From the NCBI RefSeq assembly GCF_001677475.2, contig NZ_CP015229.1: DNA of 64,000 bases; one strand, 5' to 3'. Shown one piece after another: positions 5,352 through 30,283 of this stretch. The position numbers were made by a program, and so were the translations under genes. The notes under the pieces were generated by a model. It was given only the letters and a program-made list of their open reading frames with translations. It ran no database searches and was not told the DNA's origin. This DNA comes from Escherichia coli (lineage in GTDB: Bacteria > Pseudomonadota > Gammaproteobacteria > Enterobacterales > Enterobacteriaceae). How positions within the stretch are numbered: position 1 is the first letter of the stretch; every line of letters begins with the position of its first letter.

Positions 5352-5456
<105 letters not shown>

Positions 5457-14549: not shown

Positions 14550-14654
14550 TAATCTCTATGCTCCGGCTGAAGGGATGTTTTTGCCGGACACAAAGGATAA
14601 GCGGAAACGTTTTCCTTTGCACGAAAAATAAAGGGCGCGAATGCGCCCTCGTGA

Positions 14655-19693: not shown

Positions 19694-21316
<1,623 letters not shown>

Positions 21317-21355
21317 CAATGCATTCCGGCCTGCAGTGCAGGCCGGAGATAATCT

Positions 21356-21772
21356 TCAGATCGAAATCTTTTTACTGCCGCGATGGGGGGTTGAGGTCTG
21401 ACCGTTCGCCCCATATAGCGTCGGTTCCTGATGCGGTTTCAACATTTCCAGCGCCTGTTGATTGCGCTCAATCTGTCCTTCCAGTAACCAGCCGTTATGT
21501 TGATTCATTTGGCGTAGTTGCTGCGTTTTCACAGTAATTTCCTGCCAGCGTTGACTAATATCAACGCTATTTGCTGTATTGGGTTCTTTCCTGCGTAACT
21601 GTTCGAGGTAATCCAGCGTCGCCAGCAGTGAGCTTTTTTGTTCTGTAATCCATTGCAACTGGCTGCCGTTGATCTGCCCCATAGAGAGATGTTGCTGCTC
21701 TTGATCCATTACCGTTTTGAGATCGTTAAGCACAGCGGACATCTGGTCGAGGATCTCTGCAAGACGCGTCAT
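21356..21772 (-). CDS. flgN: Flagellar export chaperone FlgN
   Basis: 138 aa; matches recalled FlgN. Confidence 0.92.
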   Translation of the reverse strand: MTRLAEILDQMSAVLNDLKTVMDQEQQHLSMGQINGSQLQWITEQKSSLLATLDYLEQLRRKEPNTANSVDISQRWQEITVKTQQLRQMNQHNGWLLEGQIERNQQALEMLKPHQEPTLYGANGQTSTPHRGSKKISI

Positions 21773-21776
21773 ACGA

Positions 21777-22070
21777 TCAGTTACTCTGCAAGTCTTGCTG
21801 AGCTTCGTTGATCAGCGCATCGGCAATTTTGCCGGTGTCCATTTTTAGTTCACCGTTACGAATCGCCAGTTTTAACGCTTCGACACGTTCAAGATTGATA
21901 TCACTGCTGCCGGGTTGCATCAGTTTTGCTTGCGCGTCGCTTAACGTCACACTGGTGCTGGTGGAGGCTGTTGTTTTTGCCGCCCGGGTGTTCGTTACCG
22001 GCGCGTCAGTGGTTTCGCGCGGTTGAACGGTGCTTACGGGCTTCAGAGGCGAAGTGCGATCAATACTCAT
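21777..22070 (-). CDS. flgM: Anti-sigma-28 factor FlgM
   Basis: 97 aa; matches recalled FlgM. Confidence 0.93.
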
Positions 22071-22113
22071 GGTTTATTCCTCATTGAGGGCGCTTTTATC
22101 ATGTGTTGCTTAT

Positions 22114-22140
22114 TTATCGGCAAGGGACGGGTAATCTTTA
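22114..22140 (-). promoter_or_regulatory. Sigma-28 (FliA) class 3 promoter for flgMN
   Basis: Minus strand reads TAAAGATT-N11-GCCGATAA, a near-perfect match to the sigma-28 consensus TAAAGTTT-N11-GCCGATAA. Confidence 0.75.
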
Positions 22141-22145
22141 ACAGC

Positions 22146-22805
22146 TTACAGGTTTATAAGAATATTCCCATCTGCATCAACAACGCCGCTGACCACCAGT
22201 CCCGATACCATGCGCACCCGCGCATTCTGTGCGACGGCTGCATTGTTTAGCGCCTGACCTTCTGCGTTGGCGCTAAACCCGTCACCGCTGGCGATCACGT
22301 TGACGCGTTGTCCCGCTTTTACCCGCCATGCCTGGCGAAACTGGGTTAACTGGATAGGTTGATCGGGTGATAGATCGCGCAGGCTAACGGCATCAACAAG
22401 TTGATTGATATCCAGCACCGTACGCGGTGGCAAGGTGTCCAGCCGTCCGCGTTTCAGTTTGACATTGCCAGCTTCCAGCTTTCCTCCCCGCACAATGGGC
22501 ATTGCGGCAACCACATAATTTCCTGTGGCCTGCACATTAACCTGTAAATATCGTTTGTCGTTACCGCAGCGTGCCAACACATTCACATTGCCCCACAGGC
22601 GGGAATTATTGCTCATCGAAAGCAATGGCTGCTCGCACGGCGGTAGTAGATTGGGCGCTGTACGAATAGAAACACGAACCTCATCACTTACCCCCGCGAG
22701 CTGGGCGCTAAAAAAGGTGTGCAATTGCGATGTGAGATTGCTCGCCGCACTTAACGGACTGAACAGTATCGCTATGATCGCCACGCTACGTTTTATTGCC
22801 AGCAT
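22146..22805 (-). CDS. flgA: Flagellar P-ring assembly chaperone FlgA
   Basis: ORF 22146..22868; start set at MLAIKRSVAIIAILFSPLSAAS (signal peptide). Confidence 0.88.
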   Translation of the reverse strand: MLAIKRSVAIIAILFSPLSAASNLTSQLHTFFSAQLAGVSDEVRVSIRTAPNLLPPCEQPLLSMSNNSRLWGNVNVLARCGNDKRYLQVNVQATGNYVVAAMPIVRGGKLEAGNVKLKRGRLDTLPPRTVLDINQLVDAVSLRDLSPDQPIQLTQFRQAWRVKAGQRVNVIASGDGFSANAEGQALNNAAVAQNARVRMVSGLVVSGVVDADGNILINL

Positions 22806-22960
22806 TTTCGCCCCCCAGCCATTTCTACAACGTGAATTGTACCTGTCCGCAATGACCATCAACGGCATAAATAGCGACCCATTTTGCGTTTATTCCGCCG
22901 ATAACGCGCGCGTAAAGGCATTTAAGCTGATGGCAGAATTTTGATACCTGCGGAGGAGAT
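22806..22960. promoter_or_regulatory. Divergent flgA / flgB class 2 (FlhDC-dependent) promoter region
   Basis: Intergenic region between divergent flgA and flgB operon starts; assignment rests on operon architecture, no motif verified. Confidence 0.5.
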
Positions 22961-23377
22961 ATGCTCGATAAGCTCGACGCCGCCTTACGTTTTCAACAAG
23001 AGGCGCTCAATCTGCGCGCCCAGCGTCAGGAAGTGCTGGCAGCAAACATCGCCAATGCCGATACCCCTGGTTATCAGGCTCGCGATATCGATTTTGCCAG
23101 TGAACTTAAAAAAGTCATGCAACGTGGACGGGATGCAACAAGCGTGGTTGCACTGACGATGACCTCAACGCAACACATTCCGGCGCAGGCGCTGACGCCT
23201 CCTACCGCAGAACTGCAATACCGTATTCCGGACCAGCCCTCGCTGGATGGTAATACCGTCGATATGGATCGCGAACGCACTCAGTTTGCCGATAACAGCC
23301 TGCAATACCAGATGAGCCTTAGCGCGTTGAGCGGGCAAATCAAAGGCATGATGAACGTTTTACAGAGCGGAAATTAA
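22961..23377 (+). CDS. flgB: Flagellar basal-body rod protein FlgB
   Basis: 138 aa; matches recalled FlgB. Confidence 0.95.
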
Positions 23378-23380
23378 CGG

Positions 23381-23785
23381 ATGGCACTGCTGAATATTTT
23401 TGATATCGCCGGGTCGGCGTTAACTGCCCAGTCCCAGCGCCTGAACGTGGCGGCCAGTAATCTGGCGAATGCTGATAGCGTGACCGGTCCCGATGGACAG
23501 CCATATCGGGCAAAACAGGTGGTATTTCAGGTTAACGCTGCGCCAGGTGCTGCGACAGGCGGCGTAAAGGTGGCCGATGTTATAGAAAGTCAGGCCCCGG
23601 ACAAACTAGTTTATGAACCGGGTAATCCGCTGGCGGATGCAAAGGGCTACGTGAAAATGCCAAACGTTGATGTCGTCGGGGAGATGGTTAACACCATGTC
23701 GGCGTCACGCAGCTATCAGGCCAATGTTGAAGTGCTCAACACGGTGAAAAGCATGATGCTGAAAACCCTTACGCTCGGTCAATAA
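23381..23785 (+). CDS. flgC: Flagellar basal-body rod protein FlgC
   Basis: 134 aa; matches recalled FlgC. Confidence 0.95.
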
Positions 23786-23796
23786 AGGAGAAAGCT

Positions 23797-24492
23797 ATGT
23801 CCATTGCGGTAACCACAACCGATCCGACAAATACCGGCGTCAGCACCACCAGCAGTAGTTCGCTCACGGGCAGCAACGCCGCAGATTTACAAAGCAGTTT
23901 TCTGACTTTGCTGGTGGCGCAGCTGAAAAACCAGGACCCGACCAATCCAATGGAAAACAACGAGCTGACGTCGCAATTGGCACAAATCAGCACGGTTAGC
24001 GGGATTGAAAAACTCAATACCACGCTCGGATCTATTTCCGGACAGATTGATAACAGCCAGTCGTTACAGGCCAGTAACCTGATCGGTCACGGCGTGATGA
24101 TCCCCGGCACCACTGTTCTTGCGGGAACCGGCAGTGAAGAAGGGGCTGTGACCACGACCACGCCGTTTGGTGTTGAGTTGCAACAGGCGGCAGACAAAGT
24201 TACGGCCACCATCACCGATAAAAATGGCGCGGTTGTGCGCACCATTGATATTGGTGAACTGACCGCCGGAGTCCACAGTTTCACCTGGGACGGTACGTTG
24301 ACTGACGGCAGCACTGCGCCGAACGGTTCTTACAACGTAGCGATTAGCGCCAGTAACGGTGGTACACAACTGGTTGCCCAGCCGCTGCAGTTTGCTCTGG
24401 TGCAGGGTGTGATCCGCGGCAACAACGGTAATACGCTGGATCTCGGCACTTACGGCACCACCACCCTCGACGAAGTACGGCAGATAATTTAA
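23797..24492 (+). CDS. flgD: Flagellar hook capping/assembly protein FlgD
   Basis: 231 aa; matches recalled FlgD. Confidence 0.93.
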   Translation: MSIAVTTTDPTNTGVSTTSSSSLTGSNAADLQSSFLTLLVAQLKNQDPTNPMENNELTSQLAQISTVSGIEKLNTTLGSISGQIDNSQSLQASNLIGHGVMIPGTTVLAGTGSEEGAVTTTTPFGVELQQAADKVTATITDKNGAVVRTIDIGELTAGVHSFTWDGTLTDGSTAPNGSYNVAISASNGGTQLVAQPLQFALVQGVIRGNNGNTLDLGTYGTTTLDEVRQII

Positions 24493-24516
24493 GCCTTCAC
24501 ATTTCAGGAGTCAGTC

Positions 24517-25722
24517 ATGGCCTTTTCTCAAGCGGTTAGCGGATTAAACGCTGCCGCCACCAACCTCGATGTTATTGGCAACAATATCGCCAACTCCGCC
24601 ACCTACGGCTTTAAATCAGGCACGGCCTCTTTTGCCGATATGTTTGCCGGTTCGAAAGTGGGACTGGGGGTAAAAGTTGCTGGTATCACTCAGGACTTTA
24701 CCGATGGCACGACCACCAACACCGGGCGTGGTCTGGACGTTGCTATCAGCCAGAACGGTTTTTTCCGTCTGGTAGACAGCAACGGTTCGGTGTTCTACAG
24801 CCGTAACGGACAATTTAAGCTGGATGAAAATCGTAACCTGGTGAATATGCAAGGTTTACAGCTGACGGGTTACCCGGCAACCGGTACGCCGCCGACTATT
24901 CAGCAAGGGGCGAATCCGACTAACATTTCGATCCCGAATACCCTGATGGCAGCGAAAACTACCACCACTGCGTCGATGCAGATCAACCTGAATTCCAGCG
25001 ATCCGCTTCCCTCTGTTAACGCATTTGATGCCAGCAATGAGGATAGCTATAACAAAAAAGGTTCGGTGACTGTTTTCGATAGTCAGGGTAATGCTCATGA
25101 CATGAGCGTCTACTTTGTGAAGACCGGGGATAATAACTGGGAGGTTTACACCCAGGATAGCAGTGATCCAACAGGCACAGCTGACCATGCAATGACGCTG
25201 GTGTTTAATGCCAATGGCGTTCTGACGTCAAATCCAACAGAGAATATTACAACTGGCGCAATTAACGGTGCAGAACCCGCCACGTTTAGCCTGAGCTTCC
25301 TCAACTCCATGCAGCAAAATACTGGCGCTAACAACATTGTGGCAACCACCCAAAATGGCTACAAACCGGGCGATCTGGTGAGTTATCAAATCAATGATGA
25401 CGGTACGGTTGTTGGCAACTATTCCAACGAACAAACCCAACTGCTGGGGCAGATTGTACTGGCGAACTTTGCCAACAACGAAGGTCTGGCATCCGAAGGC
25501 GACAACGTCTGGTCTGCGACGCAATCTTCTGGCGTGGCGCTGTTGGGGACAGCCGGGACGGGCAACTTTGGCACCCTGACCAACGGTGCGCTGGAAGCGT
25601 CCAACGTCGATCTCAGTAAAGAACTGGTCAATATGATCGTTGCCCAGCGTAACTATCAATCTAACGCCCAGACCATCAAAACCCAGGACCAGATCCTCAA
25701 CACGCTGGTTAACTTACGCTAA
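24517..25722 (+). CDS. flgE: Flagellar hook protein FlgE
   Basis: 401 aa; conserved axial N- and C-termini (MAFSQAVSGLNAA...; ...NYQSNAQTIKTQDQILNTLVNLR). Confidence 0.95.
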   Translation: MAFSQAVSGLNAAATNLDVIGNNIANSATYGFKSGTASFADMFAGSKVGLGVKVAGITQDFTDGTTTNTGRGLDVAISQNGFFRLVDSNGSVFYSRNGQFKLDENRNLVNMQGLQLTGYPATGTPPTIQQGANPTNISIPNTLMAAKTTTTASMQINLNSSDPLPSVNAFDASNEDSYNKKGSVTVFDSQGNAHDMSVYFVKTGDNNWEVYTQDSSDPTGTADHAMTLVFNANGVLTSNPTENITTGAINGAEPATFSLSFLNSMQQNTGANNIVATTQNGYKPGDLVSYQINDDGTVVGNYSNEQTQLLGQIVLANFANNEGLASEGDNVWSATQSSGVALLGTAGTGNFGTLTNGALEASNVDLSKELVNMIVAQRNYQSNAQTIKTQDQILNTLVNLR

Positions 25723-25741
25723 TCGCTGACGGGATAGCTCA

Positions 25742-26497
25742 ATGGATCACGCAATTTATACCGCGATGGGAGCAGCCAGTCAGACGCTGAATCAACAGGC
25801 GGTAACCGCCAGTAATCTGGCCAATGCCTCTACGCCCGGTTTTCGCGCGCAGTTAAACGCCTTGCGCGCAGTGCCGGTGGAAGGGCTTTCACTGCCCACG
25901 CGCACGCTGGTAACGGCGTCAACACCGGGTGCAGACATGACGCCCGGCAAGATGGATTACACCTCGCGCCCGCTGGACGTTGCGTTGCAGCAGGATGGCT
26001 GGCTGGCCGTGCAGACCGCTGACGGCAGCGAAGGGTATACGCGTAATGGCAGCATTCAGGTTGATCCCACCGGGCAACTGACAATTCAGGGGCATCAGGT
26101 GATAGGCGAGGCGGGGCCAATTGCTGTGCCGGAAGGGGCGGAAATCACTATTGCTGCCGATGGCACAATCTCGGCGCTCAATCCGGGCGATCCGGCAAAT
26201 ACGGTTGCGCCAGTAGGGCGTCTGAAACTGGTGAAAGCCACGGGCAGCGAAGTGCAGCGCGGTGACGACGGCATTTTTCGTTTAAGCGCAGAAACCCAGG
26301 CCACGCGTGGGCCTGTACTGCAGGCAGATCCAACCTTGCGTGTGATGTCGGGTGTTCTGGAAGGCAGTAACGTCAATGCCGTTGCGGCAATGAGCGACAT
26401 GATTGCCAGCGCGCGGCGTTTTGAAATGCAGATGAAGGTGATCAGCAGCGTCGATGATAACGCAGGCCGTGCCAACCAACTGCTGTCGATGAGTTAA
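25742..26497 (+). CDS. flgF: Flagellar proximal rod protein FlgF
   Basis: 251 aa; matches recalled FlgF. Confidence 0.95.
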   Translation: MDHAIYTAMGAASQTLNQQAVTASNLANASTPGFRAQLNALRAVPVEGLSLPTRTLVTASTPGADMTPGKMDYTSRPLDVALQQDGWLAVQTADGSEGYTRNGSIQVDPTGQLTIQGHQVIGEAGPIAVPEGAEITIAADGTISALNPGDPANTVAPVGRLKLVKATGSEVQRGDDGIFRLSAETQATRGPVLQADPTLRVMSGVLEGSNVNAVAAMSDMIASARRFEMQMKVISSVDDNAGRANQLLSMS

Positions 26498-26536
26498 TTG
26501 AACGATTGATGACATTGCAATAAAAGCGAGCGGACT

Positions 26537-27417
<881 letters not shown>

Positions 27418-27469
27418 GGCATAACCGGTGGCAGGTTCACCGGTTTACTGATTTTTGAAGATGATAGCC

Positions 27470-28168
27470 ATGCAAAAAAACGCTGCGCATACTTATGCCA
27501 TATCCAGTTTGTTGGTGCTTTCACTAACCGGCTGCGCCTGGATACCCTCCACGCCGCTGGTGCAGGGGGCGACCAGTGCACAACCGGTTCCCGGTCCGAC
27601 GCCCGTCGCCAACGGTTCTATTTTCCAGTCTGCTCAGCCGATTAACTATGGCTATCAACCGCTGTTTGAAGATCGTCGACCACGCAATATTGGCGATACG
27701 CTGACCATCGTGTTGCAGGAGAACGTCAGCGCCAGCAAAAGCTCCTCTGCAAATGCCAGCCGTGACGGTAAAACTAATTTTGGCTTTGATACTGTGCCGC
27801 GCTATTTGCAGGGGCTGTTTGGTAACGCTCGTGCCGATGTCGAAGCCTCCGGTGGTAACACGTTCAACGGAAAGGGCGGGGCCAATGCCAGCAATACCTT
27901 TAGCGGCACGTTGACGGTGACGGTTGACCAGGTACTGGTCAACGGCAACCTGCATGTGGTGGGTGAAAAACAGATTGCCATTAATCAGGGTACCGAATTT
28001 ATTCGCTTCTCTGGCGTGGTTAATCCACGCACTATCAGCGGCAGCAATACCGTACCGTCTACTCAGGTGGCGGATGCGCGTATTGAATACGTAGGCAATG
28101 GCTACATTAACGAAGCGCAAAATATGGGCTGGTTGCAGCGTTTCTTCCTTAACCTGTCGCCAATGTAA
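27470..28168 (+). CDS. flgH: Flagellar L-ring lipoprotein FlgH
   Basis: ORF 27455..28168; start set at [22 protein letters not shown] (lipobox). Confidence 0.93.
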
Positions 28169-28179
28169 GTGAGGCTGTG

Positions 28180-29277
28180 GTGATTAAATTTCTCTCTGCA
28201 TTAATTCTTCTACTGGTTACGACGGCGGCTCAGGCTGAGCGTATTCGCGATCTCACCAGTGTTCAGGGGGTAAGGCAAAACTCACTGATTGGCTATGGTC
28301 TGGTGGTGGGGCTGGATGGCACCGGTGACCAGACAACCCAGACGCCGTTTACCACACAAACGCTTAATAACATGCTCTCACAGCTGGGAATTACCGTTCC
28401 GACGGGCACCAATATGCAGCTAAAAAACGTCGCTGCGGTAATGGTGACAGCGTCACTTCCGCCGTTTGGACGTCAGGGGCAAACCATCGATGTGGTGGTT
28501 TCTTCCATGGGTAATGCCAAAAGCTTGCGTGGAGGTACGTTGTTGATGACACCGCTTAAGGGCGTTGACAGTCAGGTGTATGCGCTGGCACAGGGCAATA
28601 TTCTGGTTGGCGGCGCAGGGGCCTCCGCTGGCGGTAGCAGTGTTCAGGTGAACCAACTGAACGGTGGACGGATCACCAATGGTGCGGTTATTGAACGTGA
28701 ATTGCCCAGCCAGTTTGGCGTCGGGAATACCCTTAATTTGCAACTTAACGACGAAGATTTCAGCATGGCGCAGCAAATCGCTGACACCATCAACCGCGTG
28801 CGTGGATATGGCAGCGCCACCGCGTTAGATGCGCGGACTATTCAGGTGCGCGTACCGAGTGGCAACAGTTCCCAGGTCCGCTTCCTTGCCGATATCCAGA
28901 ATATGCAGGTTAATGTCACCCCGCAGGACGCTAAAGTAGTGATTAACTCGCGCACCGGTTCGGTGGTGATGAATCGCGAAGTGACCCTCGACAGCTGCGC
29001 GGTAGCGCAGGGGAATCTCTCGGTTACAGTCAATCGTCAGGCCAATGTCAGCCAGCCAGATACACCGTTTGGTGGTGGGCAGACTGTGGTTACTCCACAA
29101 ACGCAGATCGATTTACGCCAGAGCGGCGGTTCGTTGCAAAGCGTACGTTCCAGCGCCAGCCTCAATAACGTGGTGCGCGCGCTCAATGCGCTGGGCGCTA
29201 CGCCGATGGATCTGATGTCTATTTTGCAATCAATGCAAAGTGCGGGATGTCTGCGGGCAAAACTGGAAATCATCTGA
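28180..29277 (+). CDS. flgI: Flagellar P-ring protein FlgI
   Basis: ORF 28177..29277; GTG start at 28180 gives (M)[18 protein letters not shown] signal peptide. Confidence 0.93.
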
Positions 29278-30218
29278 TGATCAGCGACAGCAAACTACTG
29301 GCAAGTGCGGCCTGGGATGCGCAATCACTCAACGAACTAAAGGCGAAAGCGGGCGAAGATCCGGCGGCAAATATCCGTCCGGTGGCCCGCCAGGTGGAAG
29401 GGATGTTCGTGCAGATGATGTTGAAAAGCATGCGCGACGCTTTACCAAAAGATGGTCTGTTCAGCAGCGAGCACACTCGCCTGTATACCAGTATGTATGA
29501 CCAGCAAATTGCCCAACAGATGACGGCGGGCAAAGGTCTGGGGCTTGCTGAGATGATGGTTAAACAGATGACGCCAGAACAACCATTGCCAGAGGAGCCC
29601 ACGCCAGCAGCACCGATGAAATTCCCGCTCGAAACCGTGGTGCGTTATCAAAATCAGACGCTTTCGCAGCTGGTGCAAAAGGCCGTACCACGTAACTACG
29701 ATGATTCGCTGCCGGGTGACAGTAAAGCATTCCTCGCGCAACTCTCGCTGCCCGCCCAACTGGCAAGCCAGCAAAGCGGTGTGCCACATCATTTGATCCT
29801 CGCTCAGGCGGCGCTGGAATCTGGTTGGGGGCAACGGCAAATCCGCCGCGAAAACGGCGAGCCGAGCTATAACCTGTTTGGTGTCAAAGCCTCTGGCAAC
29901 TGGAAAGGGCCAGTCACTGAAATCACCACGACTGAATATGAAAATGGGGAAGCGAAGAAAGTAAAAGCGAAGTTTCGGGTCTACAGCTCGTATCTGGAAG
30001 CATTGTCGGATTACGTTGGGCTGTTAACGCGTAACCCGCGCTACGCCGCCGTGACGACCGCCACGAGTGCGGAGCAGGGGGCGCAGGCCCTACAGGACGC
30101 GGGCTATGCCACCGATCCTCACTATGCCCGCAAACTCACCAACATGATTCAGCAGATGAAATCGATAAGCGACAAGGTGAGCCAAACCTACAGCATGAAC
30201 ATTAATAATCTGTTCTGA
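29277..30218 (+). CDS. flgJ: Flagellar rod-assembly protein / peptidoglycan hydrolase FlgJ
   Basis: ORF 29247..30218; start at [17 protein letters not shown] overlapping flgI TGA (TGATG). Confidence 0.92.
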   Translation: MISDSKLLASAAWDAQSLNELKAKAGEDPAANIRPVARQVEGMFVQMMLKSMRDALPKDGLFSSEHTRLYTSMYDQQIAQQMTAGKGLGLAEMMVKQMTPEQPLPEEPTPAAPMKFPLETVVRYQNQTLSQLVQKAVPRNYDDSLPGDSKAFLAQLSLPAQLASQQSGVPHHLILAQAALESGWGQRQIRRENGEPSYNLFGVKASGNWKGPVTEITTTEYENGEAKKVKAKFRVYSSYLEALSDYVGLLTRNPRYAAVTTATSAEQGAQALQDAGYATDPHYARKLTNMIQQMKSISDKVSQTYSMNINNLF

Positions 30219-30223
30219 ATAAT

Positions 30224-30250
30224 TCAAGTCCGGCGGGTCGCTGCCGATAA
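30224..30250 (+). promoter_or_regulatory. Sigma-28 class 3 promoter for flgKL
   Basis: TCAAGTCC-N11-GCCGATAA; -10 element is an exact match to sigma-28 consensus, about 30 nt upstream of flgK start. Confidence 0.7.
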
Positions 30251-30283
30251 TACTCTGTAATTGAAGGCTTATAAGGAACCTCC

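Follow-up and report, generated by a model that had tools for sequence, protein, structure and literature searches.

The window, by which we mean the whole 64-kb stretch of Escherichia coli DNA that was analyzed, carries flgA, flgM and flgN one after another on one strand, with murJ beyond flgN and with flgB reading away from flgA (table 1). The products FlgM, FlgN, FlgA, and FlgB all exceed the curated cut-offs of NCBIfam, and the genes from flgB to flgL have full-length reading frames. FlgM is an anti-sigma factor which inactivates FliA, and its export through the finished hook-basal body lifts this inhibition. The stop codon of flgA occupies 22146-22148 and the ATG of flgM begins at 22070, leaving a gap of 75 bp (22071-22145) between the two genes. 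Within this gap, the minus strand contains TAAAGATT-N11-GCCGATAA at 22114-22140, which reads TAAAGATT ACCCGTCCCTT GCCGATAA from 22140 to 22114.

Table 1. Genes and promoter features around the flgA-flgM gap (window coordinates)
Feature	Position	Strand	Remark
murJ	19742-21316	+	Named as in RefSeq for the best-matching genome
flgN	21356-21772	-	FlgK/FlgL export chaperone, cotranscribed with flgM; NCBIfam
flgM	21777-22070	-	Anti-sigma-28 factor, 97 aa; NCBIfam
Remainder of flgM class 3 leader	22071-22105	-	Shine-Dalgarno GAGGA at 22078-22082
Inferred transcription start (A)	22106	-	8 nt past the last -10 base, 7 bases between
-10 element GCCGATAA	22114-22121	-	8/8 versus consensus
11-nt spacer	22122-22132	-	Sequence ACCCGTCCCTT
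-35 element TAAAGATT	22133-22140	-	7/8 versus TAAAGTTT
flgA	22146-22805	-	NCBIfam
flgA-flgB divergent control region	22806-22960		Class 2 (FlhDC/sigma-70) source of flgAMN and flgAP2/flgBP2 sigma-28 promoters
Sigma-28-like boxes CCCATTTT-N11-GCCGATAAC	within 22858-22905	+	Towards flgB
Sigma-28-like boxes AAAATGGG-N11-GCCGTTGAT	within 22858-22905	-	Towards flgA
flgB	22961 onward	+	NCBIfam

The enterobacterial consensus for class 3 flagellar promoters, which are recognized by sigma-28 (FliA), is TAAAGTTT-N11-GCCGATAA. The motif upstream of flgM agrees with it at 15 of 16 positions, with a single mismatch, whereas the runner-up matches in the 64-kb window have three mismatches each. The exact pattern TAAAGATT-N11-GCCGATAA occurs only once in the window and was absent from all 100 dinucleotide-preserving shuffles. 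We also scored both strands of the whole window with a FliA position weight matrix derived from 24 published FliA sites, from which the flgMN site had been excluded. The flgM site was the top match at 27.3 bits, about 8 bits over the maximum among 50 shuffled windows (19.0 bits), and the second match was the flgK promoter (20.0 bits). Additional matches at 62212, 52073, and 24195 (17.3-17.7 bits) scored no higher than shuffled sequence can, and none is on the published list of FliA sites; they were attributed to chance.

The -35 box begins 5 nt past the flgA stop codon. The -10 box has its final base at 22114, which precedes the A of the flgM start codon by 44 nt, with 43 nt between them. The motif has the orientation of flgM and is located a short distance upstream of it, as expected for a class 3 promoter. 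The original prediction had placed a near-consensus sigma-28 promoter here, about 45 nt upstream of flgM in a 75-bp gap after flgA; recomputing the coordinates gave the same geometry, and the consensus agreement, the top matrix score and the absence from shuffled sequence all support the motif itself.

The flgA-flgM region was matched in 5425 of 5426 complete E. coli genomes. The best identity over 12 kb (20000-32000) among these 5426 genomes was 98.5%, indicating that the source strain is not K-12; it lies somewhat outside the sampled E. coli diversity. Compared with K-12 MG1655, which belongs to another E. coli lineage (97.3% identity in flgA and 98.6% in flgM), the coding sequences differ at 1.0-2.7% of positions (18 of 660 in flgA, 4 of 294 in flgM, and 4 of 417 in flgN). 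The 75-bp gap is 100% identical (0 of 75 positions differ), so that MG1655 has the same promoter 28-mer at the same position between the same flanking genes. A 101-bp stretch spanning the gap shows at least 99% identity in 5302 of the 5425 complete genomes, but the surrounding 1.6-kb region reaches this level in just 258. By these alignments, the gap is under tighter constraint than the neighboring genes.

Published data are available for the identical sequence. The 28-mer TAAAGATTACCCGTCCCTTGCCGATAAA is the FliA ChIP-seq site "flgMN" of motile MG1655, with a fold-above-threshold value of 48, compared with 47 for flgKL and 43 for fliDST (Fitzgerald 2014; PMC4183435 Table 2). The same authors described the overlapping flgAMN and flgMN operons as "previously described". 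Based on the flgM coordinates of Kim et al. (2012), a window coordinate plus 1107281 gives the coordinate in NC_000913.2; the center of the FliA peak (1129384; PMC4183435) then falls at window 22103, which is where a polymerase bound at the flgM promoter should center. When fliA was overexpressed in an flhD deletion, flgM expression was restored (PMC4183435). Genomic SELEX with the RpoF holoenzyme gave a peak between flgM and flgA (PMC5493296), and in ChIP-chip data sigma-28 is bound to the flgM-flgN transcription unit (PMC3923258). Reviews and modeling papers likewise give flgM one class 2 and one class 3 promoter, crediting Gillen and Hughes (1993). We consider it almost certain that the feature at 22114-22140 is flgMp, the class 3 promoter of the E. 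coli flgMN operon. This promoter is already known, and its dual class 2/class 3 reading is established knowledge.

The site was then compared across Enterobacterales. Loci were anchored on a degenerate coding pattern for a ten-residue peptide of FlgM, with one genome per species; because the anchor is coding sequence, the promoter was not selected for. This yielded 69 loci from at least 15 genera, 61 of which had enough upstream sequence. The loci include Yersinia, Citrobacter, Salmonella, Enterobacter, Pectobacterium, Brenneria, Cedecea, Leclercia, Mangrovibacter, Silvania, Dryocola, Buttiauxella, Samsonia, and others. Exactly one TAAAGnTT-N11-G(C/T)CGAT was found in the 400 nt before flgM in all 61 usable loci. 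The -10 core is GCCGAT in 60 of them and GTCGAT in one, and the spacer is 11 nt long throughout. A pattern-free matrix search returned the same sites, with scores of 18.5-27.9 bits. In all but one of the loci with a callable flgA stop codon, the -35 box starts 3-6 nt past it, the exception being Yersinia aleksiciae (L044), in which the distance is 62 nt.

Among the 52 distinct sequences, mean column identity was 0.97 in the -35 box and 0.93 in the -10 box, columns which are partly fixed by the search pattern, compared with 0.61 in the spacer and 0.49-0.57 in the flanks. The real test of conservation is that every locus has a site. Retention of both boxes in 61 loci from at least 15 genera, while their surroundings drift, argues for selection on function. 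A chance match without function could draw solely on the general point that consensus matches can be random. We rejected this explanation, whose probability is practically negligible given the shuffles, the matrix score, the binding published for the identical sequence, and the conservation of the orthologous position in 61 of 61 loci.

The position of the class 3 transcription start can be approached through a reporter construct. The passage of Romilly et al. (PMC7549644) that describes it refers to "+1 to 105 of flgM ... after the first 23 codons". Since 105 - 69 = 36, the leader would be 36 nt long and +1 would be the A at window 22106. On the other hand, the sole flgM 5' end in two E. coli start-site tables (Kim 2012; Cho 2014, PMC3923258) is 1129417 of NC_000913.2. 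This corresponds to window 22136 on the minus strand, the G of TAAAG inside the sigma-28 -35 box, and the end was supported by 14-21 reads and assigned to sigma-70. The expected sigma-28 start is in neither table; the cultures were not selected for motility, so its absence is weak evidence. The supplementary start sites of Cappable-seq contain no entry near the flgM site. The end at 22136 may mark a minor start by sigma-70 or result from processing of the read-through transcript, and does not exclude a sigma-28 start.

It might be argued from this 5' end, and from the sigma-70 ChIP signal at the locus, that the true internal promoter of flgM is an overlapping sigma-70 promoter at the 3' end of flgA and that the likeness to sigma-28 sites is secondary. 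A hexamer, TAAGCT, is indeed present at -12 to -7 from the 22136 end. However, it matches TATAAT at only 3 of 6 positions and has no good -35 element, the reads are few, and a sigma-70 consensus scan of the minus strand at this place found nothing. FliA occupancy, SELEX binding, and FliA-driven expression have all been demonstrated directly (PMC4183435; PMC5493296). A sigma-70 promoter would also leave the cross-genus invariance of TAAAGnTT-N11-GCCGAT unexplained, and we regard this explanation as very improbable.

Besides flgMp, the flgMN genes may be reached by transcription from upstream of flgA. A terminator between flgA and flgM would oppose such read-through, but this candidate was discarded: a consensus scan of the minus strand, the coding strand here, from 21200 to 23100, including the flgA-flgM gap, found no terminator-like site. 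RNA-seq in K-12 supports a read-through transcript across the flgA-flgM junction, according to the text that accompanies Figure 8C of PMC4183435. The control region between flgA and flgB differs from that of K-12 by a single C, in that the C5 tract adjoining the start of flgA is C6 here, and the center of the FlhDC ChIP peak (1130152 in NC_000913.2; PMC4183435) falls inside it, at window 22871. The near identity of this region, together with the position of the peak, makes the class 2 input transferable from K-12, and by this homology it can be assumed with good confidence to carry over to flgAMN of the window strain. The C6 tract, at 22811-22816 beside the start codon of flgA, is shared with E. 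coli strain N3.

The same control region contains two further sigma-28 promoters, flgAP2 and flgBP2, as reported by Klimova et al. (2026; PMC12781870). We found two divergent sigma-28-like promoters with a common -35 region at window 22858-22905, and their boxes would fit flgBP2 and flgAP2. A sigma-28 promoter upstream of flgA means that read-through from flgA is not purely a class 2 input, and transcripts running from flgA into flgMN need not all be class 2.

The dual control of flgMN that had been proposed from the sequence, by class 2 read-through from flgA and by a class 3 promoter, is thus the published architecture for the identical sequence (PMC4183435), with no terminator in between. 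The raw-sequence reading picked one of the best-characterized alternative-sigma promoters and inferred the right architecture; flgMp is biologically important, but its value here is that of a positive control only.

The quantitative role of flgMp is more debatable. One possibility is that it binds the FliA holoenzyme but is functionally marginal: read-through from flgA would essentially determine how much flgMN is expressed, and flgMp would count only under special circumstances, for example when FlhDC is low, when flagella are repaired, or during swarming. In motile MG1655, flgMN RNA stood at 451 in the wild type and at 318 in the fliA deletion, a non-significant difference, and deletion of flhD or flhC abolished flgAMN expression (319 to 3; PMC4183435). 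The authors concluded that dual-regulated genes are mostly transcribed from FlhDC-dependent promoters, with very little FliA-dependent contribution under their conditions (PMC4183435). Nevertheless, the ChIP score of flgMN is comparable to those of flgKL and fliDST, two classical class 3 promoters, both boxes are kept across the genera sampled amid drifting surroundings, and modeling assigns a negative-feedback function to the class 3 promoter of flgM. We consider a marginal role rather unlikely. In laboratory-grown K-12, flgMp makes only a small contribution to the steady-state level of flgMN RNA (PMC4183435). Its quantitative contribution in the window strain is one that we infer.

Similar behavior was found for flgKL, fliDST, fliAZY, and fliLMNOPQR, each of which likewise has an internal or secondary FliA promoter on top of FlhDC-driven transcription and shows a small effect of fliA deletion (PMC4183435). 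Unlike the promoters of these operons, flgMp drives an inhibitor of its own sigma factor; it is also nearer to the consensus than the flgKL promoter, by 27.3 versus 20.0 bits. In the window, the flgKL promoter TCAAGTCC-N11-GCCGATAAT is located at 30224-30251 (plus strand), just upstream of flgK (ATG at 30284), and its 28-mer is identical to the FliA site published for flgKL.

The most likely mode of action of flgMp is as follows. FlhDC would switch on the sigma-70-dependent class 2 promoter that precedes flgA, and the flgAMN transcript would provide early FlgM, which would keep FliA inactive. Once the hook-basal body is finished and FlgM is exported, the freed FliA would use flgMp and other class 3 promoters. 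RNA polymerase containing FliA would recognize TAAAGATT as the -35 and GCCGATAA as the -10 element, 11 nt apart, and transcription would begin about 8 nt downstream, near window 22106, giving a short flgMN mRNA with a 36-nt leader. As the product of flgMp inhibits FliA, the promoter closes a negative feedback loop, one that sets a threshold for switching on class 3 genes.

The class 3 promoter of flgM in Salmonella enterica shares with flgMp the same boxes, the 11-nt spacing, the position a few nucleotides past the flgA stop codon, and the dual class 2/class 3 logic. The flgAMN/flgMN dual-promoter arrangement is said to have been first defined in Salmonella, by primer extension, by Gillen and Hughes in 1993. 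Both Salmonella enterica subspecies sampled have TAAAGATT-N11-GCCGATGA; the spacer sequence differs from that of E. coli, and the -10 box ends in GA instead of AA. Between the -10 box and the ATG there are 59 nt in Salmonella but 43 nt in E. coli; the Enterobacteriaceae sampled other than E. coli have 59-63 nt, and Yersinia, Pectobacterium, Brenneria, and Samsonia 96-119 nt.

Alignment of 25 Enterobacteriaceae leaders revealed that the shorter distance in E. coli, compared with Salmonella, arises because a GC-rich segment, about 17-20 nt in length, is missing between AAAGCG and CCCTC. This segment is found in Salmonella, Citrobacter, Enterobacter, Leclercia, Cedecea, and others, and folds into small hairpins which differ between genera. 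The shortening corresponds to window 22086-22095 (minus strand) when compared with loci L005-L063.

The block CCCTCAATGAGGA at 22078-22090 (minus strand) contains the ribosome binding site of flgM, and the pattern CCCTC(G/A)ATGAGGA is nearly invariant across the 25 leaders. RNAalifold predicted just a 4-bp CCUC/GAGG hairpin in these leaders, without compensatory change. Folds of single leader sequences were no better than those of shuffles (z-scores of -0.9 to +0.2), and Rfam gave nothing at flgM in the window and five related loci. Because Rfam, folding, and RNAalifold gave no support, we make no claim for a structured RNA element in the leader. If the predicted pairing forms, the CCUC and GAGG halves of the block could sequester the ribosome binding site. 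It is conceivable, but improbable, that the block acts as a cis element of the reported translational control specific to the class 3 flgM transcript and that the E. coli deletion has retuned it. A short upstream reading frame at a conserved ATGAT near +5, noticed by eye, was set aside, as it lacks a ribosome binding site and ends at different points in different genera.

The leaders of Yersinia (L002, L026, L059, and others), which are 96-119 nt long, contain repeated CCCGC and GCGGG segments that could pair alternatively. Elsewhere in the window, Rfam families scored above their gathering thresholds at four places: the RNase E 5' UTR element (rne5) at 36297-36633 (minus strand), the SraB sRNA at 38494-38662 (plus strand), the PyrC leader at 14550-14599 (minus strand), and the ES036 (CssrF) sRNA at 5377-5419 (minus strand).
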